64,000 nucleotides of DNA from Minisyncoccota bacterium (GCA_018060985.1 JAGOUZ010000003.1:47356-111355), one strand, 5' to 3'; numbered from the stretch's first letter, positions 16,945-50,144 are shown. Notes: generated from the letters alone by a model not told the origin. Made by a program: numbers and translations.

Positions 16945-17283
16945 ATGCGTATCATGAGTAACGTGTTGTTGGCAGTGTTGCCGCTTGTTGTGGCAACGCC
17001 AGCATTGGCGCTCAAGACCAGTTGGTATGAGTGCTGCAACCCCAAGACCGCTTACGGATATCCGTTTAGCGCGAATGACAAACACATTGCCGCATCCAAG
17101 AAGTTGGCCTATGGCACCAGGATCCTCCTTTCCTACAAGGGGAAGACGCTCTGCGTCACCGTGCGCGACAAGGGGCCATTCGTCGGTAACAGGGAGCTCG
17201 ACATCACCCGCGCCGGCGCCGAACATCTTGGCATGAAGAAGGCTGGCGTCGTCGACCTCCAGGCAAAAATCAACGGCTGCTAA
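16945..17283 (+). CDS. RlpA-like double-psi beta-barrel (DPBB) lipoprotein
   Basis: Signal peptide; SWYECCNP...AYGTRILLSYKGKTLCVTVRDKGPF...DITRAGAEHLG pattern of RlpA/3D-domain proteins. Confidence 0.75.
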   Translation: MRIMSNVLLAVLPLVVATPALALKTSWYECCNPKTAYGYPFSANDKHIAASKKLAYGTRILLSYKGKTLCVTVRDKGPFVGNRELDITRAGAEHLGMKKAGVVDLQAKINGC

Positions 17284-18294: not shown

Positions 18295-18684
18295 CTACCT
18301 CCGCCCCTCAAGGATGTGGGGGTAGTAATGAGGTGGCTTAACCCACTCAGCGTCCTCGAAGTCTTCCTCCGAAGAATCTTCTGCCGGTGAGACCTCGGAC
18401 CCGTCGAGGATCACGCCGAACTCGTCGAACTCGACGACCTCGTCCTCCAGGCACTGGCCGTCGGAGCCGCAGTGGCACACCGCCCTCGAGCCGTTTCCGT
18501 CGTGGGCTTTTGTAAACCTCTTGTGACGGTCTTTTGGGTTGGCGTGGCACCCGCGGAGCTTTTTGCGTTGCTCTGCTGCTTCGCGCCGCCGCTCTTTTTG
18601 GTGTTCTTTTTGCCGTAGCCGAGCCTCTTCAGCCCGCAACTCTTCTGAGGTCGGACTACTGTATCTACTAAAGCTAAAAGGCAT
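18295..18684 (-). CDS. hypothetical protein: basic N-terminus, Cys/His cluster, acidic C-terminus (129 aa)
   Basis: MPFSFSRYSS...CHANPKDRHKRFTKAHDGNGSRAVCHCGSDGQC...EDSSEEDFEDAEW; strong SD AGAGGAGGG before ATG 18684; co-oriented between smpB and ssrA. Confidence 0.55.
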   Translation of the reverse strand: MPFSFSRYSSPTSEELRAEEARLRQKEHQKERRREAAEQRKKLRGCHANPKDRHKRFTKAHDGNGSRAVCHCGSDGQCLEDEVVEFDEFGVILDGSEVSPAEDSSEEDFEDAEWVKPPHYYPHILEGRR

Positions 18685-18736
18685 CTTGCCCTCCTCTTGC
18701 ACGAATGTACAACCGCACATTTCGGCACTTGTTCTT

Positions 18737-19194: not shown

Positions 19195-21198
19195 ATGCAG
19201 AAAACCTTTTGCCCCATAACGCAAGAATGCTATACTCTTCAACACATGCCTGACCCTAACAGGAACAGCAAAACGCCCGATGGCGGCAAGCGTCGTGGCA
19301 ACATGCCCTCTATGCCTAAGATGCCAAAGAGCGACTCATTTTGGGTCAACCTAGCCACGAGCGTGCTCGTGCTCCTTTTAATAGCCGGTGCCTACACCTA
19401 CTTTATGGGCACCACCGAAGAGGCTCCACAAGAGGTGCCGATTTCTCAGTTGGCGCAGGATATAGAGATAGGTAAAGTCGCATCTATTATTGTATCTGGC
19501 GAAGAGGTGGAGGCGACATACTCCGACCAGTCTAAAAAGAAGAGTAAAAAAGAGCCAAGTACGGCTCTCACGCAGACTTTGACCAACTACGGCGTCTCTA
19601 AGCTCGCGCTTTCTAAAGTTTCTATCGATATTAAGCGCGAGACGGGCTTCCAGTTTTGGCTGGTAACGTTGGCACCATTTTTGGCACCAATACTTCTCCT
19701 CGTCTTCTTTGTCTGGTATCTCTCGCGCCAAGTGCGCGGCGCAGGTGTTCAGGCATTTTCATTCGGTCAGAGTAAGCCACGCGTTATCGACCCCAACGAC
19801 GCAACCTCGCGCGTAACCTTTAAAGATGTTGCAGGCGCTAAGGAAGCAAAGGAAGAGCTGCTCGAGATCGTCGACTTTTTGAAGAATCCTAAAAAGTTTT
19901 TGGACATCGGCGCACGCATTCCAAAAGGCATCTTGCTTATGGGTGCACCGGGTACTGGTAAAACCATGTTGGCCCGTGCGGTCGCGGGGGAAGCAGGGGT
20001 GCCATTCTTCTCTATCTCCGGCTCGGAGTTTGTGGAGATGTTTGTGGGCGTTGGCGCATCTCGCGTGCGCGACCTCTTTTTGACTGCTAAAAAAGCAGCG
20101 CCTTCTATTATCTTCGTCGACGAAATTGATGCCGTAGGTCGCATCCGTGGTACGGGCGTAGGCGGCGGCAACGACGAGCGCGAGCAGACCCTGAACCAGA
20201 TTCTTGTCGAGATGGACGGCTTTGAGCCGAACGAGAAAGTGATTGTGATGGCTGCAACCAACCGACCGGACGTGCTCGACCCTGCACTCCTTCGCCCAGG
20301 CCGCTTTGACCGCCGCGTCACTATCGACCTACCAGACCGCCAGGACCGCCTAGAGATTTTGAAGATCCACGCACGCAAGAAACCGTTTGCCGAAGACGTT
20401 AACCTAGAAGTTATTGCCGAGCGCACGCCGGGCTTTAGTGGTGCCGACCTCTACAGCCTTATGAACGAGGGCGCTATTTTGGCCGCCCGCGAGAACCGCC
20501 GCACTATTGCGCAGTACGACCTGATCCGTTCCATAGAGAAAGTGATGCTCGGCCCTGAACGCCGCTCACATGTTTTGAATGTAAAAGAGAAAGAAATTAC
20601 GGCGTATCACGAAGCAGGCCATGCACTTGTGGCGAGCGTGCTCCCATATGCTGACCCGGTACATAAAATTTCTATTATTTCGCGCGGCCGAGCTGCGGGC
20701 TATACGCTGAAGCTCCCGTTTGAAGATAAGAAGATGCAGAGCAAACGCGAGTTCTTGGACGACATTGCCATGAGCCTTGGCGGCTATGTTGCTGAAAAGA
20801 TGGTATTTAAAGATGTAACCACTGGACCGTCGAACGACTTGCAGGTGTTGACCAGCCTCGCGCGCAGTATGGTGACCCGCTGGGGCATGAGCGACAAGAT
20901 GGGCACTATCGCACTTGAGGGTGATGGCGGCCGCGCGATGTTTGGCCGCGGCATAGAGGGGAGCGAGTATTCTGAAAAAGTGTCTTCAGAGATTGATACT
21001 GAAGTAAAGAAAATAATCGACGAAGCGTACGAAAAAGCAGAACGGATTATCACGGATCACCGCAAAGCACTTAACGCGATTGCTGAGCGCCTGGTAGAAG
21101 TGGAGACCATTGAGCGCGAGGAGTTTGAAAACTTGTTGATTGCCCACGGCATCATTCCCAAGAAAAAGCAGGACATTGAGCATCAGCCAATTGCCTAG
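19195..21198 (+). CDS. ftsH: ATP-dependent zinc metalloprotease FtsH
   Basis: Two TM segments, AAA Walker [14 protein letters not shown] zinc motif; exact start among several N-terminal Met uncertain. Confidence 0.95.
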
Positions 21199-21264
21199 GC
21201 TACGCTTATAAAAATAGAATCCCCGGCGCACCGCGCCGGGGATGTTTTCATACTTACCTATCAT

Positions 21265-22383
21265 TCATTGCTCGACGAGCATCCACTGGAATTTGAAGCG
21301 CTTCCCTTCGTTCTCGTCGAACCCGAACGGGGTGAGTTGTTGGCCGGCGAACTCGTACCGTCCATTGATGGTCCACTCCTGGCGGGTCAGCGTGAACGGT
21401 TCCGCGGATACAGGCACGCGTGCGCCGTGGAACCTTTGCGCGTTGCCGTACAAAAACGCTTGCGCGTAGTCGAGGAGTCCAAGCTGGTCGAGCGACTGCA
21501 CGTAGAGCTCGAGCGCACAGTGGTAGGTGTAGTAGCCGCCGAACGCCCGCGCCGCATACTTGTTGGTTGTGGGATGCGCGGCCATATCGCTGCCGGCGAC
21601 CACATAGCTCGGACGCTCTTGCAAGAGCCTCTGCAGAGCAAAGAGATGCCGCTTCGCTTTGACGACCGGCAGACAGTGGTGGTCGGGCAGTAGGAATCCG
21701 CCGTCGTAGAGAATCCTCCGGTCGAAGGCGAGGTGGTGCGCCGTTACCTCGAAGATCCGTTTCTCGGGATCTCCGTTGCCAACAGCATAGTCCACGGCCT
21801 CCTCTGTCGAGATGTGCGCGAGGATTTGCTTCAGGTTGGGGTAGAGGTCGGGGATGTGCGGCTGGATATAGCTGTAGTAGATGCGCTCGCGATCGTATGC
21901 GTCCACATCGTCGGCCTTCCAGTGCGCCACTTCGCCATGATTCTTGAGCGGGATTCCGGCTTCGGCCATCATGGAAAGAAGCTTGCCGGTCGAACTATTC
22001 TTGTCGAGCAGGTCTTCCGGCTGGACGCTCTCTTCCGAGTGGGTACTGCCGTGTGGCGGGTACCACTTTACGTGTAGGATGAGTCCTTTCTCCCACGCCC
22101 GCAGTACTTCCTTTGGTTCGGTGGTGGGGGTGAGGTATATGCTCGCGAACCAGTGCCGGTGCGGAGCGATCTCCCGTGCCTCATCGACTTCGCGCTTGGC
22201 GTCGTCGCAGGTCAGAATGTGCGGGTTGGTGTTCGGTTCGAGCACACCGCCGTTCATCCGTTCCGCGGCTTGGCCGAGCAGGAATTTCTTGAGGGGATGA
22301 CGCCGTCCGTGCAGGTGATTGTCGAAGTGGTTCACGCGTACCGTATTCACCAAACCGTTTTCCGTCACAGTGTCGATAGACAT
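21265..22383 (-). CDS. pyrC: dihydroorotase (class II, E. coli PyrC-like)
   Basis: N-terminal metal motif FDNHLHGRR and carboxylated-Lys region HVKWYPPHGSTHSEE resemble homodimeric PyrC. Confidence 0.8.
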   Translation of the reverse strand: MSIDTVTENGLVNTVRVNHFDNHLHGRRHPLKKFLLGQAAERMNGGVLEPNTNPHILTCDDAKREVDEAREIAPHRHWFASIYLTPTTEPKEVLRAWEKGLILHVKWYPPHGSTHSEESVQPEDLLDKNSSTGKLLSMMAEAGIPLKNHGEVAHWKADDVDAYDRERIYYSYIQPHIPDLYPNLKQILAHISTEEAVDYAVGNGDPEKRIFEVTAHHLAFDRRILYDGGFLLPDHHCLPVVKAKRHLFALQRLLQERPSYVVAGSDMAAHPTTNKYAARAFGGYYTYHCALELYVQSLDQLGLLDYAQAFLYGNAQRFHGARVPVSAEPFTLTRQEWTINGRYEFAGQQLTPFGFDENEGKRFKFQWMLVEQ

Positions 22384-22489
22384 ACTGCACCCTTTCTCTG
22401 TTGCAGAACCAAGTTCCGTTCATCACCCTAGCAAAAGAAAAGGCCCGGCGCTATTGAGGCGCCGGGCCGGAACAAGTGGGGAGGAGTAG

Positions 22490-23401
22490 TTACGCCTCCA
22501 CCGGCTCTTTGTAGAAGTTGAGCATGTAGTCCATACCGATGTCGTTGAGGCCGCGCAGGTCCTCGTTCTGGAAGAAAGACGCTCCGATCTGCGCTCCGTT
22601 GACGCCGGCGTGTTCGACGTAATCGTTGATGTCCATGCCGCAGTCGATGCCACCGACACCGAAGATCGGAAAGTCAGGAAGAAGTTCCCGGTACCTGCGG
22701 CAGTTCGAGAGCGAAATTGGCTTGAGAGCCTTGCCACTCATTCCGCCGTAGTTGTTGGCAACGTCGAGGTACGGCCGCCCGTCGGGGTGATAGAGCGAGA
22801 TCGCAGGGAAGGTGTTGGTTGCGACAAGTGCATTGCAGCCGACGCCCTGGACCATCTCTGCGATCCACTCGAGATCGAGCGGGTTTGCCATGGGCGAGAC
22901 CTTGAGCCACCACGGGGTCCTCTTTCCGCTCTCGGCTAGTGCCATCGTAACTCCGCCAATGATGTCCAACAGTGCGTCTGGGTCGTACGAAGCGATCGGC
23001 CCCCGTTTTCCATCTTTGAATTTATTGGGACAGCTTCCATTGACCTCGATCACGTCGGCGTCGATGCCGAGCGCAACGATAGACATGAAGTAGTAGTCGT
23101 CGGGGGTGTCGCCAGCGATGTTAATGACCGCCTTCTTGCCGGCCTCCTGGATGGTGTGGACCATCTTCGCGCCTTGTTTCGCCAGGTAGTCGGCGCCGCC
23201 GTTCTTGAGCTGGATCGAGTTCGTGGCGGTGCCGTCTGCTCCCACATGGAAGTTCGTCCCACCCGAGCTACCGGGCTTTGCTTCCGGCGTAAATGAGCCC
23301 AGGACCACGTGGGTCAGGAGCGGCACGGTCGAGAGCAGATGCGCCTGTTCGACCGTCTTGGCCCAACCGGCAGCGTTCATAAAGGCGATTGGCATTTGCA
23401 T
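22490..23401 (-). CDS. pyrD: dihydroorotate dehydrogenase, class 1
   Basis: Class-1 DHODH active-site region NGSCPN, FMN-binding TIM barrel pattern. Confidence 0.85.
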   Translation of the reverse strand: MQMPIAFMNAAGWAKTVEQAHLLSTVPLLTHVVLGSFTPEAKPGSSGGTNFHVGADGTATNSIQLKNGGADYLAKQGAKMVHTIQEAGKKAVINIAGDTPDDYYFMSIVALGIDADVIEVNGSCPNKFKDGKRGPIASYDPDALLDIIGGVTMALAESGKRTPWWLKVSPMANPLDLEWIAEMVQGVGCNALVATNTFPAISLYHPDGRPYLDVANNYGGMSGKALKPISLSNCRRYRELLPDFPIFGVGGIDCGMDINDYVEHAGVNGAQIGASFFQNEDLRGLNDIGMDYMLNFYKEPVEA

Positions 23402-23502
23402 TGCGCAGTCCTCCGTTGTGAAAATGTACCCGCTTGCACAATACCCGAGATAGGGGAAAAGAAAAAGGCCGCGGTTCCAGTATGGAACAGCGGCCGAGGC
23501 GT

Positions 23503-24522
23503 TTAACGGAGCGGGGGATTGTCGTGACAGATCTTCGCCAGAAGTGCTCGGCGGATGATCCGGCCGAAGCGCATCTGCTCGACATACAGCTGCTGGGGCA
23601 TGTGGTCTATCTCACGCGCCAATTCCTCGTTGCGGGGGAGTGGGTGCATGATCCGCGCACCCGGCTTCATGCGCGCGGCCATCTTGCGGTCGATGATGAA
23701 GGGTGGGTTGCTGTCGTGTTCGCTTGCGTTCGCGGCACGCTCTTTCTGCGCCCGAGTTTGGTAGAAGATGTCGACCTGGTCGATCACCCACTCGAGATCG
23801 CTGGTCTCGATAACCCGGATATTCATCGACTCCTTATGACGCTCAAGGTAATAGCGAAGTTCGCCTTTGATGCGCAGTCCATCCCGCGATACCAGATAGA
23901 AGGTGATGTCACGAAACTTGGTGAGCGAATAGATGAACGAGTTCGAAGCACGTGCATTCTTGAGGTCTCCCCCAAACCCGATGTTCAGACCGTCGAGCGA
24001 ATTCCTGACTGAGAAGGCGGTGCGCAGATCGAGCAACCCCTGCGTTGGATGCTGTTCGCCGCCAGAACCTGCATTGATAACGGGCACTTTGGATACCAGT
24101 GCGGCTCGGTAGATCGCGTCCTCATCTGGATGACGAAGCGCGATGATGTCCTCGGCGCCGATGGTAGAGAGGGTGAGGATCGTGTCCTCGAGCGACTCTC
24201 CCTTCTTACCCTCAGAAGATTCGCCGATACTCCTCGCGATGTAGTTGCCGCCTAGGTCTTGTGCCGCCTTGATAAATGACACTGCGGTGCGCGAGCTGGC
24301 CTCGTCGCCGTACCAGTGCAGAGTGCGGCCGCGCATAAGAGTCCGCACCTCTTCGGTGTCTTTTCTTCTTTCGAGTAGGTCGCCCAGCATAAAGAGCTCG
24401 CTGATAAGTGCGCGGTCAAAGTCTTGCGAACGCAAGATGTGACGCAGTTGGCGTGGAGACCCTTCGAGTAGTTCTCTGATCGAGGGTTCACGTTTTTTCG
24501 AACGAGTAGTAGCTTTTGCCAC
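23503..24522 (-). CDS. pyrB: aspartate carbamoyltransferase catalytic subunit
   Basis: SSRTAVSF (STRTR-like), HPTQGLLD and HPLPRNEE motifs. Confidence 0.85.
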   Translation of the reverse strand: MAKATTRSKKREPSIRELLEGSPRQLRHILRSQDFDRALISELFMLGDLLERRKDTEEVRTLMRGRTLHWYGDEASSRTAVSFIKAAQDLGGNYIARSIGESSEGKKGESLEDTILTLSTIGAEDIIALRHPDEDAIYRAALVSKVPVINAGSGGEQHPTQGLLDLRTAFSVRNSLDGLNIGFGGDLKNARASNSFIYSLTKFRDITFYLVSRDGLRIKGELRYYLERHKESMNIRVIETSDLEWVIDQVDIFYQTRAQKERAANASEHDSNPPFIIDRKMAARMKPGARIMHPLPRNEELAREIDHMPQQLYVEQMRFGRIIRRALLAKICHDNPPLR

Positions 24523-24609: not shown

Positions 24610-24682
24610 GGGCGTGTAGCTCAGCTGGTAGAGCAGTCGACTTATACTCGACCGGTCGCAGGTTCGAACCCTGCCGCGCCCA
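24610..24682 (+). tRNA. tRNA-Ile, anticodon UAU
   Basis: Cloverleaf GGGCGUG/CGCGCCC acceptor (one G-U), anticodon loop CUUAUAC, T-loop UUCGAAC; no CCA encoded. Confidence 0.8.
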
Positions 24683-24727
24683 CAAAAGACAGAAAGACCT
24701 GCCCTGCGGCAGGTTTTCTGCTTTTGT
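24683..24727 (+). terminator. hairpin/terminator after tRNA-Ile
   Basis: CACAAAAGACAGAAAGACCUGCC-cugc-GGCAGGUUUUCUGCUUUUGUG long imperfect hairpin with U-run. Confidence 0.5.
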
Positions 24728-24810
24728 GGGAGGCGGAGCGATGTTTTGCAATTGCAAAACCGCGAGCCGGGGTCGCGGGCGACTTTGCTGACGAGCAAAG
24801 TTGACCTGTG
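24697..24810 (+). mobile_element. miniature insertion at the 3' end of tRNA-Ile (copy 2), flanked by a direct repeat of the tRNA 3' terminus
   Basis: CCCACAAAAGACAGAAAG (24679-24696) repeated as ACCACATAAAGACAGAAAA (24811-24829); contains the core GGCGGAGCGATG-TTTTGCAATTGCAAAA-CCGCGAGCCGGGGTCGCG, 43/45 identical to copy 1. Confidence 0.4.
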
Positions 24811-24999
24811 ACCACATAAAGACAGAAAACTGTGCATAACCGTGCTTGTAGCTAAGCGGGAGAAGGAGGATAGTTATGGGACAGGGCTGAGGGGCCTAAA
24901 ACAGGTTTTATCAGCAGTATGGATGTTGGGTGGCGGGAAACCGCCCTTATTCATATCAGGAATTCGTTTGCTCTTTATTTATTTTTATAATTGCGTCCC

Positions 25000-26649
25000 A
25001 TGTCTACCAGAACGACGGTTTCGGTTGTATCTGCAGGTCTTTTTTTATTAAGTGTCCCGCTTCTTGCTTCCGCCGCCGTTACCTTCCAGGGTGGGTGGGA
25101 GCGAGGAGTGCTTACCGGAGCGGGCGAGTGGTCTAACAAGCAGGTAATGCGCCCCGACAGTTATCAGATTGTGAGCGACGTAGTGCGCACCGGTACGAAA
25201 GCGGCGCGCGTAGAGGTGCGACCCGGAGACAATCCACTTACATGGTGCTGCTCAAATACTGAGCGTTCTGAAGTATTGTTTATGACCAAGCCAGATGGCT
25301 CGATGGTAAATGAGAACAGTTCTAGCGGCACACAGTATTACGGCTTTAGTGTGCGCCTTGATTCCACCTGGGCAGCCAGCACCTGGGCCACTCTATTTCA
25401 GCTCCATGGTCCAGACTCGTATGGCACGTGGGCTTCATTTGAGTTGGACGCCCGGAATGATCGCTTTGAGGTATACATGCTTGGCGGCGATGTGACCCAG
25501 GTCACCAGTCCAACTACCTACGCGCTGTCTAATAGCTCTCTTAATCGCGGTAAATGGGTAGACTTTATCGTAAAGATAACCTATGCCTCTGGTCCGACTG
25601 GGGCCCTTACGGTGTGGCGTCGCGACGAAGGACAGGCTAATTTTACTCAGGTGGTTAATGCACAAAATGTGCCCACTTTGCAATATAAATCGACCGAGGG
25701 TACCCAAGTTGGTGCTCACTATTGGAAGGCAGGCATCTATCGTAATGCAGAAAGCTCGACCAGTATCTTATGGAATGATGGCTTTGTGCGCGCCGATACC
25801 TACGAAGAGATACTTAATTACTTTGGCACTACCACGCCGCCTCCACCTCCTCCGCAAGACACCACGGCTCCTACGGTCCCAACGGGATTGAGTGCTACCG
25901 CTGCATCTCAGACGGCCGTCAATCTTTCGTGGAACGCATCGACCGATGCAGTTGGTGTTGCCGGATACCGTGTATTTAGAAACGGCACTCAGGTTGCTGA
26001 TTCTCCTGGTAGGACCTTTAGCGACACCGGCCTTACTGCGGCCACGATGTACAGCTACACGGTTGCAGCCTATGACGCTGCAGGAAACTTTTCTGCGCAA
26101 AGCGGTGCGGTAAGTGCGACCACACAGTCCGCAGCATTTGCGCTTACTGTAGAAGCGGAGAACTTTCAGACCAAGTCGGGAGGCAATGGCAGTGTGAGTG
26201 GCGTATGGAACCTCAACTCAAACGGATACATATCGCATCCAGTTACGTTCCCAGGTACTGGCACCTATACTTTTGACATTGTGGCACGCGGCACCAAAGC
26301 GGCTGGCGCCTGGGCAAATATGCGCGTGAGCATAGACAATGTTGTTAAGAGTAATGTGACTGTTGACTCTACGTCACTCAAGACCTTTCGGGTGAAGGTT
26401 GCCAATGTAACGGCCGGACAGCATGTGCTTAAGCTCGAGTTTACCAACGACTATTACAACGAAAAGAAAAAAGAAGAAGATCGCAACTTACTTATAGACA
26501 AAGTCACCATTAAAAACTCCACGGCAACCGGCATGATCACTAACGTTGTATTTGCGCTAGCAGACACGATGTCGGTTGCGGGGATAAAACTAACCGCGAT
26601 TATTTCAGCTGCGATGGAATTGCTCGCAGGTGCGCAAGATACAGCGTAA
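25000..26649 (+). CDS. secreted polysaccharide-lyase-like protein with FN3 and carbohydrate-binding-module-like domains
   Basis: Signal peptide; beta-jelly-roll region (QYYGFSVRLDSTW...LFQLHG...YWKAGIYR) resembles heparin-lyase-I/PL-like fold; Pro-rich linker; FN3-like (LSWNAS...GYRVFRNG); CBM-like C-terminus; ORF track starts at TTG 24991. Confidence 0.6.
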   Translation: MSTRTTVSVVSAGLFLLSVPLLASAAVTFQGGWERGVLTGAGEWSNKQVMRPDSYQIVSDVVRTGTKAARVEVRPGDNPLTWCCSNTERSEVLFMTKPDGSMVNENSSSGTQYYGFSVRLDSTWAASTWATLFQLHGPDSYGTWASFELDARNDRFEVYMLGGDVTQVTSPTTYALSNSSLNRGKWVDFIVKITYASGPTGALTVWRRDEGQANFTQVVNAQNVPTLQYKSTEGTQVGAHYWKAGIYRNAESSTSILWNDGFVRADTYEEILNYFGTTTPPPPPPQDTTAPTVPTGLSATAASQTAVNLSWNASTDAVGVAGYRVFRNGTQVADSPGRTFSDTGLTAATMYSYTVAAYDAAGNFSAQSGAVSATTQSAAFALTVEAENFQTKSGGNGSVSGVWNLNSNGYISHPVTFPGTGTYTFDIVARGTKAAGAWANMRVSIDNVVKSNVTVDSTSLKTFRVKVANVTAGQHVLKLEFTNDYYNEKKKEEDRNLLIDKVTIKNSTATGMITNVVFALADTMSVAGIKLTAIISAAMELLAGAQDTA

Positions 26650-26650
26650 C

Positions 26651-28834
26651 CTACTCGAAGTGTGTAGTTTGAGTTCTGCGTAGCAGTGCTGCAAGAAGGG
26701 CCGGATGCTTTTGAAGCTCCGGCTCTTTTTGTATAAGGGTTACCGCTTCTGTGCGGGCTGCTTCTACGAGCTTTAAATTTTTGAGGGCTTCCATTCCTAT
26801 GTCGGAGATGCCCCATTGCTGGCGGCCAGAGAGCTCGCCCGGGCCGCGCTGCATAAGGTCCATTTCGGCAAGTTCAAAACCATTTTTTGCTTTCTTAAGC
26901 GCCTTGAGGCGGTCCAACGTCTTTTCGCCACGAGATTCTGGACAGACAAAGCAGTAGGCTTGGTGGGTGGAGCGCACTACGCGGCCGCGTAATTGGTGAA
27001 GCTGGGAAAGACCAAATCGCTCCGCACCCTCAATGAAGATCATCGTGGCGTTAGGGACGTTAACGCCCACCTCAACTACCGAGGTAGCAACCAAAATATC
27101 GATCTCTTTGTTAGAAAACTGCGCCATGATGTTATCTTTTTCAGCCGGCTTCATTTTGGAATGTAAGATGCCGATGCTGTATTCGGGAAAGACTTCTTTT
27201 TTTAGGCGTTTGGCTTCGGCTTTAACCGACTTTGCCTGGAGAGCAAAGGCCTTGTCTGGATCCGGTTCGTCGATGCGCGGGCATATTACGTAGGCCTGCC
27301 GCCCATCTTTAAGTTCGCGGCGCATAAGTTGGTAGGCATCGCCGCGCTCCTCGGGCTTAACGAGCTCGGTGATAATCGGTTTGCGGCCGGGCGGCATTTC
27401 GTCGAGGAGGGTTAAGTCGAGGTCTCCATATATAGTGAGCGCCAGCGTACGTGGAATTGGCGTAGCGGTCATAGAAAGCAAGTGGGGGAGGCGAACCTCT
27501 TTTTTAGCAAGCTGGCGGCGCTGGTTGGTGCCAAAGCGATGCTGTTCGTCGATAATCACGAGCGCCAGGTGTTTAAACTGCACCGACTTTTGAATGAGTG
27601 CGTGGGTGCCAATCACTACGGGGATCTCACCATTTGCCACCCATTTTAAAAGCTGAGTGCGGGAAATGTTGGTTGCTTGGCCGCGCCGAACTTTGGAAGG
27701 AAACTTATAACACCCCGAGCCGGTGATAAGCCCGATGTTAATAGGGAAGTTCTCAAAATATTTTATAAACGACTCAAAGTGCTGCTTTGCCAGAATTTCA
27801 GTCGGTGCCATATAGGCAACCTGGAGCGTGCCAAATGTTTGGCCCTGCGGGCGCGTGCGTACGGCGGCATAGCTTGCGGTTGCAGCGACTGCGGTTTTGC
27901 CCGAGCCCACATCGCCCTCAAGCAGGCGTGACATCGGGTGACCACTTTGCATATCTTTTAGTATGGCGTTGATTGCGCGGTTTTGTGCCACGGTAGCCGT
28001 AAAGGGGAAGGCGCTCATAAACTCATCAACGGCTGCGGGCGGTGCGTCGACGGTAAAACTTTTTTCTTTGGCCTGTGCCGCACGCTCTCGCTGGCGCTCG
28101 AGCTGGATAAAAAATACCTCTTCAAAGGCAAAACGCTTGCGTGCAGCATCGGCATCCTTAAGATTCTGGGGCGTGTGGATCCACACCAGCGCGGTCTTAA
28201 GGGTGGGGAGGTTGTAGCGCTTGAGGATGTCTGCAGGTATGGGGTCCTCAATTTCCTCGATCACATTTGGCAAAACTTTTTGTACCGCGTGGCGCATCCA
28301 GAGCGATGTTACACCGCGGCTCTCGGGATACTGCGCAAAAAATCCCTTCGCAACAGAACTCTTAGAAAAAGTACTCGGGTCTCCCTCAGGCTTTTCTTCG
28401 GTTTGAATAAACAACCCTTCGTCAGTGGCTGAAACTTTTTCAAGCTGAGGGTTTGCTAAGTACATTTTGGCGCCGGAGCCCGAGACCTTGCCTACCGCTT
28501 TAACCAGTGTGCCGTTTTGATACATCTTGGCGATGTAGGGCTGGTTAAACCACATGCATTTAATTTTGCCGCTCGCGTCTTGAATAAAGCCTTCTGAAAT
28601 TGGGATTCTGCGCTTCCAGGATTTTTTTGTCTCAAGTTTGTCGATCGTGCCAATCACCGTGGCTTCCTGCCCGGCAACAAGGCCGCTAATAGTTGACTCG
28701 TCTCCTGCGGTGTCGTACCGAAAGGGGAAGTGGAAGAGGAGGTCGTGCACAGTGTGCACGTTAAGGCGTGAAAGAGCGCTTTTTTGGGAGTCCATAAGGC
28801 GCAGGTGTTCTGTGAGTGGGTCAGAAAGACGCAT
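26651..28834 (-). CDS. recG: ATP-dependent DNA helicase RecG
   Basis: 727 aa, Walker A GDVGSGKT, DEQHRFG, wedge-domain N-terminus. Confidence 0.95.
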   Translation of the reverse strand: MRLSDPLTEHLRLMDSQKSALSRLNVHTVHDLLFHFPFRYDTAGDESTISGLVAGQEATVIGTIDKLETKKSWKRRIPISEGFIQDASGKIKCMWFNQPYIAKMYQNGTLVKAVGKVSGSGAKMYLANPQLEKVSATDEGLFIQTEEKPEGDPSTFSKSSVAKGFFAQYPESRGVTSLWMRHAVQKVLPNVIEEIEDPIPADILKRYNLPTLKTALVWIHTPQNLKDADAARKRFAFEEVFFIQLERQRERAAQAKEKSFTVDAPPAAVDEFMSAFPFTATVAQNRAINAILKDMQSGHPMSRLLEGDVGSGKTAVAATASYAAVRTRPQGQTFGTLQVAYMAPTEILAKQHFESFIKYFENFPINIGLITGSGCYKFPSKVRRGQATNISRTQLLKWVANGEIPVVIGTHALIQKSVQFKHLALVIIDEQHRFGTNQRRQLAKKEVRLPHLLSMTATPIPRTLALTIYGDLDLTLLDEMPPGRKPIITELVKPEERGDAYQLMRRELKDGRQAYVICPRIDEPDPDKAFALQAKSVKAEAKRLKKEVFPEYSIGILHSKMKPAEKDNIMAQFSNKEIDILVATSVVEVGVNVPNATMIFIEGAERFGLSQLHQLRGRVVRSTHQAYCFVCPESRGEKTLDRLKALKKAKNGFELAEMDLMQRGPGELSGRQQWGISDIGMEALKNLKLVEAARTEAVTLIQKEPELQKHPALLAALLRRTQTTHFE

Positions 28835-34008: not shown

Positions 34009-35097
34009 ATGGCGTTTTCGCTCTCATCACTGTTTTCTAAATCTTCGAAGAGCGTGCTTGGTGTTGATATTGGCACATCTTCTATTAAAGTGGTGCAGCT
34101 GCGCCGCGAAAAGGGGAGAGTAATCCTTGAGACCTATGGCGCAATTGCGCTCGGGCCGTACGCCGGGGTGGAGATAGGTCGCGCCACCTCGCTCCCGGCA
34201 GAAAAGATCGCCGAGGCTCTGAAGGATGTTATCCGCGAGGCAAATGTCACTACTTCAGATGTTGCCATATCCATCCCGTATTCATCGAGCCTCATATCAC
34301 TCGTTAAACTCCCCAAAGCGGTAGAAAAACAACTGGCGCAGGTGGTGCCTATCGAGGCGCGCAAATACATCCCGGTTCCTATCAACGAGGTGATGCTCGA
34401 TTGGTTTGTGGTCTCTGGTGGCAGCCATGCCCCCGGCGATGCCGACAAGATAGAAGTGCTCCTCGTTGCTATCCACAACGACACCATCTCGAAATTTAAA
34501 AATATTGGCACGAGCGCTACGGTTAACACCGCCTTTTTTGAGATAGAGGTCTTTAGCGCCGTGCGCGCCGCGCTTGAGCATGGGCTCGCGCCGGTTGCGG
34601 TGGTAGACATGGGCGCCGCGACAACCAAGTTTTATGTCGTTGAGCGTGGGCTTATACGCGAGAGTCATATTATTAACCGTGGCGCTCAAGACTTAACTCT
34701 TGCCGCAGCGCGCGGCCTCAACATAACCATTGCACAGGCAGAGGAGCGCAAGCGTAAGGTGGGCATTATGGCCAACCCGCCTGCGGACCTTGCTCCTGCG
34801 GTGCAATCATTTGAACTTACACTCGCACCTTTAGTGTCGGAGATATCGCGCACCATTGCCAACTACGAGCAACGCGCCAACCAAACGCTTTCGGCACTGG
34901 TGCTCACGGGAGGAGGAGCAACACTGCGCGGGTTTATGGAATACGCTCAGCCTAAGATTCAGACCGAGATCCGGCTCGCAGACCCGTTTGGCAAAACTCA
35001 AGCACCAGCTTTTTTGGAGAAGATCCTCAAGGAAGCGGGGCCGGAGTTTTCAGTTGCGGTAGGGTTGGCTCTTAGGCGTCTCCAAGAGGTTGGGTAA
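34009..35097 (+). CDS. pilM: type IV pilus assembly protein PilM (actin-like ATPase)
   Basis: N-terminal VLGVDIGTSSIKVVQL... actin-fold motif. Confidence 0.85.
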   Translation: MAFSLSSLFSKSSKSVLGVDIGTSSIKVVQLRREKGRVILETYGAIALGPYAGVEIGRATSLPAEKIAEALKDVIREANVTTSDVAISIPYSSSLISLVKLPKAVEKQLAQVVPIEARKYIPVPINEVMLDWFVVSGGSHAPGDADKIEVLLVAIHNDTISKFKNIGTSATVNTAFFEIEVFSAVRAALEHGLAPVAVVDMGAATTKFYVVERGLIRESHIINRGAQDLTLAAARGLNITIAQAEERKRKVGIMANPPADLAPAVQSFELTLAPLVSEISRTIANYEQRANQTLSALVLTGGGATLRGFMEYAQPKIQTEIRLADPFGKTQAPAFLEKILKEAGPEFSVAVGLALRRLQEVG

Positions 35098-35148
35098 TGT
35101 GTTGATACACGACTAGTTGCATATTTTATCGAGCTATACTGTACGTAA

Positions 35149-35826
35149 ATGGATCCCCAGGTCTCAAATTCGTTCATTCCAAAGAAGCCGCTTACCGGAG
35201 AGCGTACACGCGGTAATGCATTTGGTTTTATCGTCCTTATTGCGGTGTTGGTGTTTATTGCATCAGGCGCAGCAGCGGGCGGTGTATTTGTGTATGGCCG
35301 CGTTCTCCAGAGTTCGCTTGAGTCAAAGAAGTCTTCGCTCAATAAATCGCAAGAAGCGTATGACCCGGGTGTTATCGAAGACCTCGTTCGTCTGGACACT
35401 CGTATGATCCAAGGCCGCTCTCTGCTCGAAAAGCACATCTCTCCCTCATCGATCTTTACCTTCCTGTCAGAGAACACGCTTGAGGACGTGCAATTTACGG
35501 AATTTGAGTACTCAATTACTGATGGCGGCGCTGCGGCTATAACCATGAAGGGCGACGCAAAAGACTTTTCGACTGTTGCACTCCAGTCGGACCGCTTTGG
35601 CTCGAGCAAGATGCTTCGCGAGATTGTATTTTCTGACATCGCTATCGGTGCAGAAGGGGGAGTGAGCTTTTCGGTAAGCGCAACCATCGATCTCCCGAAC
35701 CTGCTCTACAGCAAGCATCTAAACCAGACAGTCTTTGTACCGCCTGCTGCGGATAGCGTTGCCCCTGCCTCTGTCCCTGCCGTTACCGCTACTTCGACCT
35801 CGTCGACCACAAAACCAAGCATATGA
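35149..35826 (+). CDS. PilN-like bitopic membrane protein
   Basis: N-terminal TM then periplasmic domain; position after pilM. Confidence 0.6.
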   Translation: MDPQVSNSFIPKKPLTGERTRGNAFGFIVLIAVLVFIASGAAAGGVFVYGRVLQSSLESKKSSLNKSQEAYDPGVIEDLVRLDTRMIQGRSLLEKHISPSSIFTFLSENTLEDVQFTEFEYSITDGGAAAITMKGDAKDFSTVALQSDRFGSSKMLREIVFSDIAIGAEGGVSFSVSATIDLPNLLYSKHLNQTVFVPPAADSVAPASVPAVTATSTSSTTKPSI

Positions 35827-36374
35827 TGCGATTTATTACACCTCTTGTACTGGTAGGCCTGGGCGTAGCGCTCTTCATGCTCTATACCGACCCTGCGTAT
35901 CAGGACACTAAAGAAGTTAAGGTGCAGGTGGACTCATACGACAATGCTCTTACCAAATCTCAGGAGCTTAAAAAGGTGCGCGATCAACTGCTCTCGAGGC
36001 GCAATGCGCTCCGGGTGGAAGATCTCCAGAAGCTCGAGAAGGTGCTTCCTGACAACGTCGACAACATCCGCCTTATTATCGACATCGACAACATTACGAC
36101 CCGTCGAGGCCTAGCGCTTAAGGATGTACAGCTTGGCGAAATATCCGACTCGACTACTGCGCGCGACCCGCTTGCAGTTGGCGACTCCGGCAACCCTGTA
36201 GGCTCTGTTACGCTTAACTTTACCGTCTCTGCAGGATACGAAGACTTCTTAACGCTCCTTGCCGACTTGGAGCATAGTTTGCGTGTGGTTGATATCGAGA
36301 GAATCGCTTTTACAGCGGGGGATACGGGACAAGACGAATATGAAGTTACCATCCGCACCTACTGGCTCCGTTAA
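35823..36374 (+). CDS. PilO-like membrane protein
   Basis: TM plus coiled-coil then beta domain; overlapping start with the preceding gene. Confidence 0.6.
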   Translation: MMRFITPLVLVGLGVALFMLYTDPAYQDTKEVKVQVDSYDNALTKSQELKKVRDQLLSRRNALRVEDLQKLEKVLPDNVDNIRLIIDIDNITTRRGLALKDVQLGEISDSTTARDPLAVGDSGNPVGSVTLNFTVSAGYEDFLTLLADLEHSLRVVDIERIAFTAGDTGQDEYEVTIRTYWLR

Positions 36375-36384
36375 TATTTGATAT

Positions 36385-36681
36385 ATGCAAGCCTTTAAAG
36401 ACAAAAAAACATTGATATACGGGCTCATACTCACCGTATTGCTTATTGTTGCGTACTTTGTGATGTTTGCTGACAAAGGGGAGGGGCCTGCACTTACCGC
36501 AGTTTCAGAAGACCCAACGTCTGCCGTCTCACGCGACCTCCTTAAAACCCTTTCGAGCCTGAATGTTATTAAACTCGATGAGACTCTGTTTGCTGACCCG
36601 GTGTTCACGTCACTTTCTGACTTCGGCGTTATTATTCCAGCGCAGCCTATCGGCCGCCGCAACCCGTTCGCTCCTATTTAA
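36385..36681 (+). CDS. small pilus-assembly-associated membrane protein (PilP-like?)
   Basis: 98 aa, single TM, GRRNPF C-terminal motif. Confidence 0.4.
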   Translation: MQAFKDKKTLIYGLILTVLLIVAYFVMFADKGEGPALTAVSEDPTSAVSRDLLKTLSSLNVIKLDETLFADPVFTSLSDFGVIIPAQPIGRRNPFAPI

Positions 36682-36689
36682 CCTGGCCT

Positions 36690-38555
36690 ATGGATCTACT
36701 GCAGCTTTTAAGCGACAAAGGAGTCGTCGATCGTGCCCGCCTTGCTGAACTTCAGGAGGAAATTGCAAAGCCAGGGAACTCAGCAGAAGCCGTACTCCAG
36801 AAATCAGGCGTTACGCTTAAAGATATTCTGGCAGTCAAAGGCGAGCACTACGGACTCCCCACACGCGAACTTGGCGACCACAGCGTACCCTTCGATATTT
36901 TGCGCTTTGTGCCGGAAGAATCGGCACGTTACTACCGCTTTGCACCTCTTGCCGTCCAAGATGGCGTACTAGAGATTGGCGTTACCGACCCAGACAACAT
37001 GGAGGCGCGGGATGCGCTTACCTTTATTTCTGCAAAGGTGGGCATGCCTTACAAAGTATTTTTGGTTACTGATACTGATTTTGAAAAACTGCTCACGTTG
37101 TATAAAGGTCTGTCTGGAGAAGTGGGGAAGGCGCTCGGGGAGCTCGAGACCGAGCTTACGCTCGAGGCACTCGAAGTTGATAAAAAGGGAAATAAGAAAT
37201 CGCTCGCGCTTGAGGACGATCTTATTACGGAAACCGAGACCGATGCCATTACCGAAGATGCCCCGGTTACAAAGATTGTAGCCACCATGCTACGCCATGC
37301 GGTAGAACAGCGTGCGTCCGACATCCACGTTGAACCGCTGGTCGACCAGACGCGTGTGCGCTTTCGCGTGGACGGTGTGCTTATCACCAACATTACGCTT
37401 CCGCCTAAAATTCACTCCTCGGTCGTGGCGCGCATCAAGGTGCTCTCTAACATGAAGCTCGACGAAAAAAGAAAGCCGCAGGACGGCCGCTTTTCCGCGC
37501 GTGTCTCCGGCAACAAAGTCGACTTCCGTGTCTCGACCTTCCCAACCTACTACGGCGAGAAGGTGGTGATGCGTATTTTGGGCGCCTCGGCCAAGGTGCT
37601 TAAGCTTGATGACTTTGGGCTCTCAAAGCGCAACTTAGAGTTAATCCGCACCGCGATTAAAAAGCCCTACGGCCTCGTGCTTATCTCCGGCCCTACGGGC
37701 TCCGGTAAATCTACTTCGCTGTACGCTATTTTGAACGAAGTCGACCGCGAAAAACAAAACGTACTTTCGCTTGAAGACCCGGTCGAATATACCATCCCGG
37801 GCGTGGCGCAAAGCCAGGTGCGGCCTGAAATCGGTTACACCTTTGCCAATGGACTACGCACCACACTCCGTCAGGACCCGAATGTGATAATGGTCGGCGA
37901 AATCCGCGACAGCGAGACCGCCAACTTGGCGGTGCAAGCCGCATTGACCGGCCACTTGGTGCTGTCGACCATCCACACCAACAACGCTATAGGCATTGTG
38001 CCGCGCCTCCTCGACATGGGTGTGGAGCCGTACCTTATTCCCCCCGTACTTATTTTGGGCATCGCACAGCGCCTGGTTAAGACCCTATGTCCCGGGGGAG
38101 GGAAGAAGATGAAGGTAGAGGGCAGTGTTGAAGCGATGCTTAAAGAACAATTTGCTGACCTTCCGGCGGAGTATCAAAAAGATATTCCATCGCTCGCAGA
38201 AATGTCCCTCATTGACCAAACTGCTGACTGCCCTTCGGGCACAAGGGGTCGTATTGCGGCGTTTGAAATGTTTGACATGAACATAGAGCTTGAGAAAGCG
38301 ATTTTGGCCAATAAGTCAGAAGATGACTTATACAAAATTGTACGCAAGAGCGGCATGCTCACGATGAAAGAGGATGCTATCATAAAATCAGCGCAGGGTA
38401 CGGTGCCGTTTGAGGAAGTAAACACCCTGGGCGGTGAGTTTGAACTCGACGAACCTGCTGAGGTGGTTCCTCCTGCACCTGTGGCTATGAGTGAAGACGC
38501 TACAGAAGTACCCACCACTCCTCCTAAAAAGAACCCGTTCAAAAAAGAAGCATAA
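36690..38555 (+). CDS. pilB: type IV pilus assembly ATPase PilB (GspE family)
   Basis: Walker A GPTGSGKST, GspE N-domain, C-terminal zinc/acidic tail. Confidence 0.95.
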   Translation: MDLLQLLSDKGVVDRARLAELQEEIAKPGNSAEAVLQKSGVTLKDILAVKGEHYGLPTRELGDHSVPFDILRFVPEESARYYRFAPLAVQDGVLEIGVTDPDNMEARDALTFISAKVGMPYKVFLVTDTDFEKLLTLYKGLSGEVGKALGELETELTLEALEVDKKGNKKSLALEDDLITETETDAITEDAPVTKIVATMLRHAVEQRASDIHVEPLVDQTRVRFRVDGVLITNITLPPKIHSSVVARIKVLSNMKLDEKRKPQDGRFSARVSGNKVDFRVSTFPTYYGEKVVMRILGASAKVLKLDDFGLSKRNLELIRTAIKKPYGLVLISGPTGSGKSTSLYAILNEVDREKQNVLSLEDPVEYTIPGVAQSQVRPEIGYTFANGLRTTLRQDPNVIMVGEIRDSETANLAVQAALTGHLVLSTIHTNNAIGIVPRLLDMGVEPYLIPPVLILGIAQRLVKTLCPGGGKKMKVEGSVEAMLKEQFADLPAEYQKDIPSLAEMSLIDQTADCPSGTRGRIAAFEMFDMNIELEKAILANKSEDDLYKIVRKSGMLTMKEDAIIKSAQGTVPFEEVNTLGGEFELDEPAEVVPPAPVAMSEDATEVPTTPPKKNPFKKEA

Positions 38556-38558
38556 CCT

Positions 38559-39620
38559 ATGGACTATAAACAAAAACTCTCAGAACTTATCGAGGCTCTT
38601 ATTGCCCAAGGTGCTTCAGACCTTCACCTTAGCGTTGGCAGTCAGCCCGTTATCCGTGTCTCGGGCGCACTAACGCCGCTTTTGCAGGAGAAAGTGCTCA
38701 CGCAGGCGGACATGGACGGATTTTTTGCTGAACTCTTGTCTCCGGAGCGTGCCAAAGATTTTAAGGACACACAGGAGGTCGACTTTTCGTACTCCTACCA
38801 AGACAAAGTGCGCTTTAGAGGAAACGGCTACTGGCAGCGCAGCACCTCGGCAGTGGCACTCCGTTTGATCCCCAAAGTAATTCGCTCTATTGGAGAGCTT
38901 AATTTGCCCCCGGCGCTTGAAAGCTTTGCACTACGTGAACAGGGATTCTTTTTGGTGGTGGGTCCGGTGGGACAGGGAAAGACCACCACCCTTGCGGCGC
39001 TTATCGAAAAGATTAACCAAGAGCGCACCGAGCACATAGTGACGATCGAAGACCCAATTGAGTATTTGTTTGAAAATAAAAAATCGCTGATTGACCAACG
39101 AGAAGTTAAGGTGGACACCGTCGACTTCCATATAGCGCTTCAGTCGGTATTCCGCCAAGACGCAGACGTGCTTATGGTGGGGGAAATGCGTACTCCGGAA
39201 ACTATGTCTACTGCCGTTACTGCGGCGGAGACGGGCCACCTCGTGTTTTCTACACTCCACACTAACAATGCGGCCCAAACTATCGACCGTATTATCGACT
39301 CGTTCCCGGCAAACCAGCAGGATCAGATCCGCGTCCAGCTCGCTGGCTCGCTCGCAGGTGTGTTTTCCCAGCGTCTTGTGCCCCGCATCTCTGGCGGGTT
39401 GGTGCCAGCGTATGAGCTCATGGTGTCTACACCGGCTATCGCAAACCTGATCCGTGAAAAACGTACGCACGAAATACAAACCGTTATTGAAACTGGCTCA
39501 GAAGAGGGAATGATAGACATGAACCGTTCGCTCGCTGAACTGGTGCGTGGCGGAGAAATTTCCGTAGAGAGTGCCTATTCCCGCACCTGGAATCCGCGCA
39601 CGCTTGAACGCTTGCTCTAA
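38559..39620 (+). CDS. pilT: twitching-motility retraction ATPase PilT
   Basis: Walker A GPVGQGKTTT, 353 aa. Confidence 0.9.
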   Translation: MDYKQKLSELIEALIAQGASDLHLSVGSQPVIRVSGALTPLLQEKVLTQADMDGFFAELLSPERAKDFKDTQEVDFSYSYQDKVRFRGNGYWQRSTSAVALRLIPKVIRSIGELNLPPALESFALREQGFFLVVGPVGQGKTTTLAALIEKINQERTEHIVTIEDPIEYLFENKKSLIDQREVKVDTVDFHIALQSVFRQDADVLMVGEMRTPETMSTAVTAAETGHLVFSTLHTNNAAQTIDRIIDSFPANQQDQIRVQLAGSLAGVFSQRLVPRISGGLVPAYELMVSTPAIANLIREKRTHEIQTVIETGSEEGMIDMNRSLAELVRGGEISVESAYSRTWNPRTLERLL

Positions 39621-39626
39621 TAATCT

Positions 39627-40844: not shown

Positions 40845-40954
40845 AGCAGGGGGCTATCCACAGGGCTTCCATTGTGGAAGATATAAACCGGCTATACTTT
40901 AGGCATCCGCAATTAGCGTTAAATTTATTAATTAGTAACAATTCGGATACGAAT

Positions 40955-41413: not shown

Positions 41414-41435
41414 GTTCTCGCATAGTTTAAATCGA

Positions 41436-41462
41436 AATCCCCAGCCTAGGCTGGGGATTTTG
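41436..41462 (+). terminator. intrinsic terminator after the first pilin gene
   Basis: AAATCCCCAGCC-tag-GGCTGGGGATTTT. Confidence 0.6.
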
Positions 41463-41489
41463 TATGTAGCGTATATACTTATTATATAT

Positions 41490-43903: not shown

Positions 43904-43908
43904 ACGAT

Positions 43909-45061: not shown

Positions 45062-45066
45062 GTTGT

Positions 45067-50072: not shown

Positions 50073-50144
50073 CGCGGGGTGGAGCAGTAGTAGCTCGCCA
50101 GGCTCATAACCTGGAGGTCGGGGGTGCAAGTCCCTCCCCCGCAA
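50073..50144 (+). tRNA. initiator tRNA-fMet, anticodon CAU
   Basis: C1:A72 mismatch (CGCGGGG/CCCCGCA) typical of bacterial initiator; anticodon loop CUCAUAA; terminator hairpin 50158-50180. Confidence 0.8.

Follow-up and report, generated by a model that had tools for sequence, protein, structure and literature searches.

A probably resident pyrimidine gene set with a persistent codon offset, between ftsH and tRNA-Ile(UAU) in Paceibacteria

A stretch of 64,000 nucleotides from a Minisyncoccota bacterium (GCA_018060985.1 JAGOUZ010000003.1:47356-111355), called the window in what follows, carries between ftsH and a gene for tRNA-Ile(UAU) three consecutive genes of de novo pyrimidine biosynthesis, pyrC, pyrD and pyrB. 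On the whole of the evidence, these genes probably make up a resident and apparently functional set in Paceibacteria, within the candidate phyla radiation (CPR). They sit in a slot common to the clade, with a vertically transmitted pyrC, swaps of single cassettes and a codon usage that is persistently offset from that of the neighbouring genes. This bears on a common view of metabolism in these organisms, as CPR bacteria, or Patescibacteria, are generally thought to scavenge nucleotides. The slot is composed as follows:

19195-21198, plus strand: ftsH, conserved flank of the slot, 66-94% identical to its counterparts in relatives
21265-22383, minus strand: pyrC, divergent type II (E. coli-like) dihydroorotase of 372 aa
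22490-23401, minus strand: pyrD, divergent class-1-type dihydroorotate dehydrogenase of 303 aa
23503-24522, minus strand: pyrB, aspartate carbamoyltransferase catalytic chain of 339 aa, with a GTG start after AGGAGG
24610-24683, plus strand: tRNA-Ile, anticodon TAT (UAU), found by ARAGORN and by Rfam (71.4 bits over the full model)
26651-28834, minus strand: recG, second conserved flank of the slot

A preliminary description of this DNA had announced three consecutive pyrimidine genes on the minus strand. Three open reading frames (ORFs) of that single orientation lie exactly where it had put them, between ftsH and tRNA-Ile, and their domains and residues agree with its account.

Synteny and descent

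The order recG / tRNA-Ile(UAU) / pyr genes / ftsH / smpB / tmRNA is found again in some 13 related Paceibacteria loci (L002-L022). Most of the loci compared came from exact-protein look-ups, while profile scans of genome and metagenome contigs with a PyrC alignment gave 3 and 4 loci. The tRNA accompanies the pyr genes wherever a contig covers that part of the slot. Steps 2-4 of uridine monophosphate (UMP) synthesis are thus kept at one locus down to about 66% FtsH identity, which argues that the genes are used and are not accidental pick-ups.

The homologues of the three proteins belong to the same circle. PyrC has about 30 homologous clusters, at 42-82% identity, and every named one is from Paceibacterota or Patescibacteria. 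PyrD gave 7 matches in a word search and, in an exhaustive scan, 64 cluster representatives out of 1.84 billion at E<1e-30; its closest named relative comes from Candidatus Adlerbacteria. The nearest relatives of PyrB are found in Paceibacterota, then in Kaiserbacteria. Taken together, the named close homologues of all three proteins belong to Paceibacterota, Patescibacteria, Kaiserbacteria or Adlerbacteria only, and the window itself is part of a metagenome-assembled genome that NCBI assigns to Candidatus Pacebacteria.

Neighbour joining places PyrC of the window with that of L008, then with L002; it also unites L006 with L004, and L003 with the pair formed by L017 and L018. The same groups come out of the FtsH, RecG and SmpB trees, within the set of loci that each covers. 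L008 is the closest relative (FtsH 94% identical), and identity between it and the window at fourfold degenerate sites is 0.52 in ftsH, 0.54 in pyrC and 0.53 in pyrD: being equal, these values indicate that the three genes diverged together. We conclude that pyrC is inherited vertically with ftsH, and that pyrD probably is. The case of pyrB is different, with a fourfold-site identity of 0.38. Its product is incongruent with the flanks, as it is 74% identical between L008 and L020 against 61% between the window and L008, where FtsH has 94% for window-L008 against 80%. Along a sliding comparison with L008, nucleotide identity drops gradually, from 0.81-0.88 in ftsH to 0.59-0.65 in pyrB, and displays no sharp recombination breakpoint.

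One of the records used deserves a comment. L004, which groups with L006, bears the title 'uncultured Candidatus Saccharibacteria bacterium'. With FtsH and SmpB 80% and 73% identical to those of the window, it has probably been mislabelled, or else mis-binned.

Three divergent enzymes

PyrC (locus tag KBD50_02030) has no Pfam match in a scan of the window's ORFs. Its best solved structures are 4lfy (148 bits; Burkholderia), 5vgm (Vibrio) and 1j79 (E. coli, 115 bits). Type II dihydroorotases (DHOases) are recognised, in E. coli numbering, by an HxH pair, a carboxylated Lys, His139, His177 and Asp250, and by Arg20, Asn44 and His254 for the substrate. PyrC has the full set: D21, H23, H25, R27, N51, K106, H149, H190, D266 and H270 are invariant in an alignment of 25 homologues and in the alignment with 4lfy. 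The match to TIGR00856, the E. coli-type structures and the retention of all metal and catalytic residues uphold the class II call of the preliminary description.

PyrD reaches 96.6 bits with PF01180, for a gathering score of 27. The base expected of a class 1 dihydroorotate dehydrogenase (DHODH), Cys and not Ser, is present in the motif 'NGSCPN', where 'evngSCPNkf' aligns with 'elniSCPNv' of L. lactis DHODB (5ue9); the class 1 assignment made earlier therefore stands. No pyrK adjoins the gene among the ORFs of the window, and the named relatives of PyrD carry 'fumarate' or 'oxidase' type labels in their source records.

PyrB comprises both domains of its family (PF02729, 104 bits; PF00185, 77 bits), and hidden Markov models of aspartate carbamoyltransferase (ATCase) outscore by far those of ornithine carbamoyltransferase (OTCase). 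Among solved structures, those of A. thaliana PYRB and of archaeal ATCases match it best. The equivalents of R54, T55, K84, R105, the HPTQ motif (H134, Q137), R167, R229 and Q231 are invariant in 21 sequences. The carbamoyl-phosphate motif reads S-S-R-T-A instead of the canonical S-T-R-T-R. More generally, the clade to which this PyrB belongs has S-S-R-T-(A/K/F/Y), the last Arg being variable, and a conserved N-terminal extension of about 25 residues. No pyrI adjoins pyrB, and this, with the domain and TIGR00670 matches, is in line with the catalytic chain without pyrI that had been described.

From these residues all three proteins are predicted to be active enzymes. PyrB would make carbamoyl-aspartate from carbamoyl phosphate and aspartate, PyrC would cyclise it into dihydroorotate, and PyrD would oxidise the latter to orotate. 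We infer that the flow is anabolic, from carbamoyl phosphate and aspartate to orotate.

Cassettes in a mosaic slot

Signals for the end of transcription, and one candidate for its start, punctuate the block:

21219-21243, between the convergent ftsH and pyrC: bidirectional terminator hairpin with U-tracts on both strands (-23.0 kcal/mol, z = -4.5)
22425-22433, minus strand: candidate extended -10 element TGCTAGGGT for pyrC, a putative promoter
22432-22468, minus strand: terminator hairpin and U-tract after pyrD (-24.6 kcal/mol, z = -4.5)
23457-23495, minus strand: terminator hairpin and U-tract after pyrB (-21.7 kcal/mol, z = -6.0)

Because a strong terminator lies behind each gene, the block looks like three cassettes, not one polycistronic operon. 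The hairpin after pyrD is kept in 8 related loci, even with a different type of pyrD or pyrC. In an alignment, TGnTAnnGT stands at the same position upstream of pyrC in 8 loci, whichever type of pyrD or pyrC they hold. The ATG of pyrC, at 22383, is preceded by GAAAGGG, which resembles a ribosome-binding site. A scan for the sigma-70 consensus gave no convincing promoter for the pyr genes, and Rfam, run at gathering scores and at E<=1 between 21.15 and 25.05 kb, gave the tRNA and chance-level matches only, with no PyrR-binding or pyrimidine-responsive RNA. Each pyr gene of the window would form a cassette by itself, closed by a terminator hairpin, and at least pyrC would have its own extended -10 promoter. 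Such a layout would make gene-by-gene replacement easy.

Judged from the sequences, the slot is demonstrably mosaic within the clade: DHODH comes in five types or more and DHOase in two, and pyrB varies or is incongruent. In L005, the closest relative on a long contig (FtsH about 90-92%), and in L022, the position of pyrC is taken by a canonical PyrC, 29-30% identical to that of the window; the L005 protein scores 291.5 bits with TIGR00856. The window shares its type of DHODH with L008 and L005. Two other class-1-like forms are found in L002 and L014, and a quinone-type class 2 enzyme in L006, L012, L017 and L022. A form that is barely recognisable (23 bits to PF01180, under the gathering score) occupies L019. 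CPR bacteria are generally thought to be without quinones and respiratory chains, which makes the class 2 enzyme unexpected here. It is of full length in all four loci (L006 8848-9888, L012 8841-9872, L017 8698-9882, L022 7245-8270), and in L006 it reaches 376 bits with NF003652, above the cut-off. As for the barely recognisable form, a 364-aa protein in the position of pyrD (L019 2112-3206, also in L011 and L018), it could be either a DHODH of extreme divergence or another enzyme that has taken its place.

Variation also affects the arrangement of the slot. Upstream in the window, L008 and L022, pyrB is downstream in L017 and L018, and absent from several loci; in roughly half of them all, the orientation of the tRNA with respect to the pyr genes is reversed. 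In L020 (4162-5463; Paceibacterota GCA_035550415.1), only pyrB and a 65-aa ORF are left between tRNA and ftsH, a sign that the set of cassettes can undergo decay or splitting. Single cassettes would occasionally have been swapped within the clade, among them the pyrB allele of the window and the other DHODH or DHOase types of its relatives. The locus is recombinationally active, yet the block of the window is not a recent foreign import.

A persistent codon offset

It had been noticed by eye that the codons of the block end in G or C more often than those of ftsH. Computed along the window, the G+C content of third codon positions (GC3) is not uniform, and the pyr genes are significant outliers. 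GC3 is 0.764 in pyrC, 0.770 in pyrD and 0.676 in pyrB, against 0.599 in ftsH and 0.550 +/- 0.057 in the 57 other genes of the window that were curated (z = 3.8, 3.9 and 2.2); a pooled chi-square on the codon bias of the three genes gives p = 4e-30. First and second codon positions are ordinary. The shift is chiefly from T to C, as third-position C amounts to 0.44 versus 0.28 and T to 0.13 versus 0.25. TTC makes up 0.74 of Phe codons versus 0.21, and, among Ile codons, ATC makes up 0.88 versus 0.33 and ATA 0.03 versus 0.23. The spacers within the block have a G+C content of 0.55-0.57 versus 0.485.

The contrast with ftsH is thus real; it is not, however, unique to the block. The rise in GC3 extends from about 15.6 to 24.5 kb, peaks at the pyr genes and ends abruptly at the tRNA. 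Within these 9 kb, GC3 is 0.62 for both IF3 and SmpB. A small DPBB (RlpA-like) gene at 16945-17283 has 0.743, level with the pyr genes, and an uncharacterised ORF at 18295-18720, encoding 141 aa rich in Glu and Arg, has 0.676.

Relatives tell how old the offset is. In 12 of 13 loci the pyr genes have a higher GC3 than the genes around them (Wilcoxon p = 0.0017, the loci not being phylogenetically independent), and their GC3 follows the host background across the 13 (slope 0.71, r = 0.72, mean offset near +0.1). For these two reasons, the codon bias is a persistent, long-standing property of the locus, which scales with the background of the host. The preference for C-ending codons persists in GC-rich relatives and in the non-orthologous pyrD and pyrC genes of the slot. 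With a background GC3 of 0.71-0.80 in L014, L017, L018 and L020, the pyr genes are not outliers there; they are in GC-poorer hosts, namely the window, L005, L006, L008, L003 and L004.

Two simple causes were considered and rejected. The first is incomplete amelioration of one ancient transfer. Fourfold-site identity between the window and L008 is about 0.5, which corresponds, by a Jukes-Cantor estimate, to a synonymous distance of roughly 0.8 substitutions per site; yet both keep the offset, and pyr GC3 follows the host. Over such a distance, the composition of one old import ought to have been ameliorated, so that a persistent local force is needed. The second is translational selection of the kind that acts on ribosomal-protein genes, as the main cause. 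Those of the window have neither the TTC (0.19) nor the GTC (0.09) preference, and their GC3 is below average: the pattern of the pyr genes is not theirs.

The local force that we favour is GC-biased repair linked to recombination, and this because the slot is demonstrably mosaic. The offset would come from raised homologous recombination in the slot combined with GC-biased gene conversion (gBGC). Elevation of GC3 associated with recombination has been described in bacteria (PMC4450053). A bolder proposal, to be entertained tentatively, makes of the whole recG / tRNA-Ile(UAU) / ftsH interval a long-lived recombination hotspot, a plug-in site for self-contained pyrimidine cassettes, each equipped with a promoter and a terminator; the GC3 offset would be its gBGC footprint. 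DHODHs (two to three divergent class-1-like types, class 2 and the barely recognisable form), two DHOases and several ATCase alleles would have been exchanged there repeatedly. If true, this would offer a rare instance, in a CPR lineage, where gBGC and the modular exchange of pathway parts are directly visible, perhaps in step with different electron acceptors or hosts.

Repeated introgression, in which pyr alleles would be periodically replaced from GC-richer members of the clade and thereby keep GC3 high in GC-poorer hosts, appears unlikely to us. The potential donors do exist (L014, L017, L018 and L020), the outliers are confined to GC-poorer hosts, relatives harbour xenologous pyrC and pyrD in the slot, and PyrB combines an incongruent topology with a lower fourfold-site identity than that of ftsH. 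Yet pyrC, which shares with pyrD the highest GC3, is congruent with the flanks and has the synonymous divergence of ftsH, while pyrB, which provides the best evidence of exchange, has the lowest GC3 of the three. Moreover, even in the GC-rich L014 and L020 the pyr genes are more C-biased than their neighbours.

Codon selection tied to the expression or regulation of the pyr genes would be a less probable explanation still. It could act through C-ending codons suited to G34 tRNAs, through avoidance of AUA, or through a U-poor mRNA under UTP scarcity. That the bias is met in functionally equivalent, non-orthologous pyr genes across genomes speaks for it, as does a weaker AUA avoidance and ATC preference in the ribosomal-protein genes of the window (ATA 0.07, ATC 0.52). 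What these ribosomal-protein genes lack, as we have just seen, tells against it; replacing T by C does not alter how many pyrimidines the mRNA contains; unrelated neighbours, the DPBB gene and the ORF at 18295-18720, share the shift; and the spacers of the block, too, are GC-richer.

The tRNA gene and its 3' side

The preliminary description further held that the block abuts a tRNA gene carrying a miniature insertion. The tRNA does adjoin the block. It is, by both ARAGORN and Rfam, a normal 74-nt tRNA without insertion, and what had been meant is probably a repeat-bounded segment that lies downstream of it. Divergent from pyrB, the tRNA has the pyr block on its 5' side and the following features on its 3' side:

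24679-24730, plus strand: long hairpin of about 24 bp, overlapping the last 5 nt of the tRNA (-39.2 kcal/mol, z = -7.2)
24685-24828, plus strand: segment between direct repeats AAAGACAGAAA, located at 24685-24695 and 24818-24828
24991-26649, plus strand: gene for a polysaccharide lyase / fn3 / CBM60 protein (PF14099, PF00041, PF16841), with an unremarkable GC3 of 0.515

The 24-bp hairpin is common to the window, L008, L011 and L002. Behind it come a conserved GGCGGAGCGATGTTT motif and a second hairpin, then about 64 nt specific to the window that end in the AAAGACAGAAA repeat; by eye, these stand for about 14 nt in L008. The repeat is exact over 11 nt, extends to 17 of about 19 positions (by eye, with one indel), and has a spacing of 133 nt. 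The region as a whole (24679-24830) could be a terminator, a small RNA or the scar of an element. The polysaccharide lyase / fn3 / CBM60 protein, presumably secreted, counts as variable cargo, since only the window and L008 have it (62% identity); other relatives have in its place nothing, DUF2061, a fused MFS/spermidine synthase, or FIST with a two-component system.

A tRNA-Ile(UAU) is unusual in bacteria, where AUA is normally read by a lysidine-modified CAU tRNA; Mycoplasma mobile, which lacks tilS, is an exception (PMC3575796). In the genes of the window AUA accounts for about 23% of Ile codons. The window also has two tRNAs with a CAT anticodon, at 50073 and 50293, of either Met or Ile2 type. 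The tRNA-Ile(TAT) gene was seen at this locus in 12 relatives (L002, L003, L005, L006, L008, L011, L012, L014, L017, L019, L020 and L022). Two of these, L002 (7348-7517) and L012 (6960-7134), have a second copy of its last 20 nt or so about 150-155 nt downstream, with, by eye, an inverted T-arm fragment between the copies; no integrase is present. Such an att-like duplication is what a miniature element, or a decayed one, would leave on integrating at the 3' end of the tRNA.

Such details were of interest for what had been thought a plausible origin of the block, namely horizontal acquisition at a tRNA integration hotspot. A recent genomic island would have brought the three genes from a GC-richer donor to tRNA-Ile, and their GC3 would be the un-ameliorated composition of that donor. 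Three adjoining outliers next to a tRNA, pyrimidine genes that are rare and scattered in the phylum, and att-like duplicated ends around inserts of about 150 nt at the same tRNA in L002 and L012 make the idea understandable. We nevertheless hold it as highly improbable, for many observations contradict it. Islands integrate on the 3' side of a tRNA, and this block lies on the 5' side. There is no integrase or recombinase, the three pyr genes being the sole ORFs with a family match between ftsH and the tRNA (the other ORFs listed there run across them in different frames). A search from 17 to 31 kb for the terminal 20 nt of the tRNA, with up to 3 mismatches allowed, gave no further copy. The same genes lie beside the same tRNA in about 13 relatives. 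Branching of the Pyr proteins with the host lineage had been set in advance as the observation that would refute the transfer, and this is what is seen: the nearest homologues are from CPR bacteria, the PyrC tree matches those of FtsH, RecG and SmpB, and the synonymous divergence of pyrC and pyrD is that of ftsH. Finally, acquired genes are usually AT-richer than their host, and the pyr genes are GC-richer. The island is therefore largely refuted. What survives of horizontal transfer is the exchange of single pyr genes within the clade and the inserts at the tRNA of two relatives. If anything was inserted at this tRNA in the window, it is on the 3', lyase side, not on that of the pyr block.

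Pathway context

According to one study, genes for de novo nucleotide synthesis are missing from 93% of Patescibacteria genomes and are phylogenetically scattered (bioRxiv 10.64898/2026.06.21.733656). This supports what the preliminary description said of their rarity in CPR bacteria; it also means that the presence of pyr genes in some of them was already known. The pyrG gene that had been pointed out at 56119 is there, encoding CTP synthase (56119-57786), and Gmk, Adk and Ndk are also encoded in the window.

One could imagine the three enzymes running in the catabolic direction, from orotate to dihydroorotate, carbamoyl-aspartate and carbamoyl phosphate, with ATP made by carbamate kinase. 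The textbook model is the orotate fermentation of Clostridium oroticum. This is pure speculation, and it is hardly credible. In its favour, the organism is likely a fermenter, and no carAB, pyrE or pyrF is seen in the window. However, the window and the 10-kb flanks of some 13 relatives contain neither carbamate kinase nor an orotate transporter, and PyrG, Ndk and the nucleotide kinases fit an anabolic role. As for a chimera of assembly or binning, with the fragment of a GC-richer organism joined into the contig, its probability is next to nil: the compositional discontinuity is all that suggests it, an independent assembly of run SRR11088367 has identical pyrB-pyrD-pyrC-ftsH junctions, and the same gene order appears in many unrelated samples.

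Elsewhere in the window, a complete type IV pilus cluster (PilM/N/O, PilB, PilT, PilC, prepilin peptidase and six pilin-like genes) occupies 34009-45714, with a ComF-like phosphoribosyltransferase (PF00156) beside it; the pilus assignments were made by eye from translations. It is typical CPR content, unrelated to the pyr genes.

Weight and meaning of the evidence

To come back to a resident, functional pyr set whose offset is due to recombination, several observations weigh against it. The first is a matter of pathway: carAB, arcC, pyrE and pyrF are found neither in the window nor in the 10-kb flanks of the relatives. Another is a matter of divergence. PyrC scores 158 bits with TIGR00856, below the equivalog cut-off of 292.95, and this places it in a divergent subfamily; PyrD is far below the cut-offs, with 106 bits for NF005574 (1B-type, cut-off 269) and 61 bits for NF002702 (1A-type); PyrB, at 225.7 bits, is slightly under the 236.95 of TIGR00670. 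With all three NCBIfam equivalog scores sub-cut-off, it is the conserved residues alone that argue for activity. Descent, too, is less than perfectly clear. The trees are neighbour-joining trees of 9-11 taxa without support values, and PyrD is mildly incongruent, with 72% identity between the window and L005 against 63.5% between the window and L008. Lastly, the shift is not what gBGC, the candidate cause favoured here, would predict in its simple symmetric form: it is stronger for C (z about 3.5) than for G (z about 1), and part of it may stem from lagging-strand asymmetry.

If the genes are nevertheless what they probably are, they point to a lineage suited to testing for partial autonomy in pyrimidines. 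That DHODH classes, quinone-type included, are mixed in a single slot gives a lead on the diversity of electron acceptors. There is also a caution of method: a solid anomaly of GC3 and codon usage beside a tRNA, with all the looks of a textbook island, turns out to be ancestral by comparative synteny, and in small genomes an outlying composition can be the mark of persistent local forces.

Comparison with known systems

The locus is, in sum, an ordinary metabolic cluster of divergent known enzymes, with a persistent codon offset of which gBGC is a candidate cause. With tRNA-linked islands it has in common a compositionally deviant block beside a tRNA, and relatives with att-like duplications of the 3' end of that tRNA; it differs from them in having no integrase and no tRNA-derived flanking repeats, in lying on the 5' side, and in being syntenic throughout the clade. 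With the pyr operons of bacteria, such as pyrR-P-B-C-AA-AB-K-D-F-E of Bacillus, it shares the clustering of consecutive steps of UMP synthesis in one orientation; unlike them, it comprises three steps only, and no PyrR or PyrR-binding RNA was found.

The enzymes compare in a similar way with their solved counterparts. PyrC is akin to the homodimeric type II DHOases (1J79, 4LFY, 5VGM) in fold family, in length, and in its binuclear-zinc and substrate residues, while its identity to them of about 30% (by eye, from one printed alignment) and its low TIGR00856 score set it apart, in a small clade that amounts to some 30 clusters when grouped at 90% identity. PyrD, a member of the PF01180 family of TIM-barrel flavoenzymes, has the 'N-x-S-C-P-N' Cys motif of the class 1 DHODHs (L. 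lactis DHODA, 1DOR; PyrD of DHODB, 1EP1 and 5UE9) and, like them, is without an N-terminal membrane domain; its best solved structure, at 65 bits, is however about as distant as dihydropyrimidine dehydrogenase (59 bits). PyrB, finally, differs from the plant and archaeal ATCases (A. thaliana 6YW9, M. jannaschii 2RGW, P. abyssi 1ML4) by the absence of a PyrI chain, by its N-terminal extension and by SSRTA in place of STRTR; it shares with them the two-domain OTCase/ATCase fold, in which all ligands of carbamoyl phosphate and aspartate are kept.

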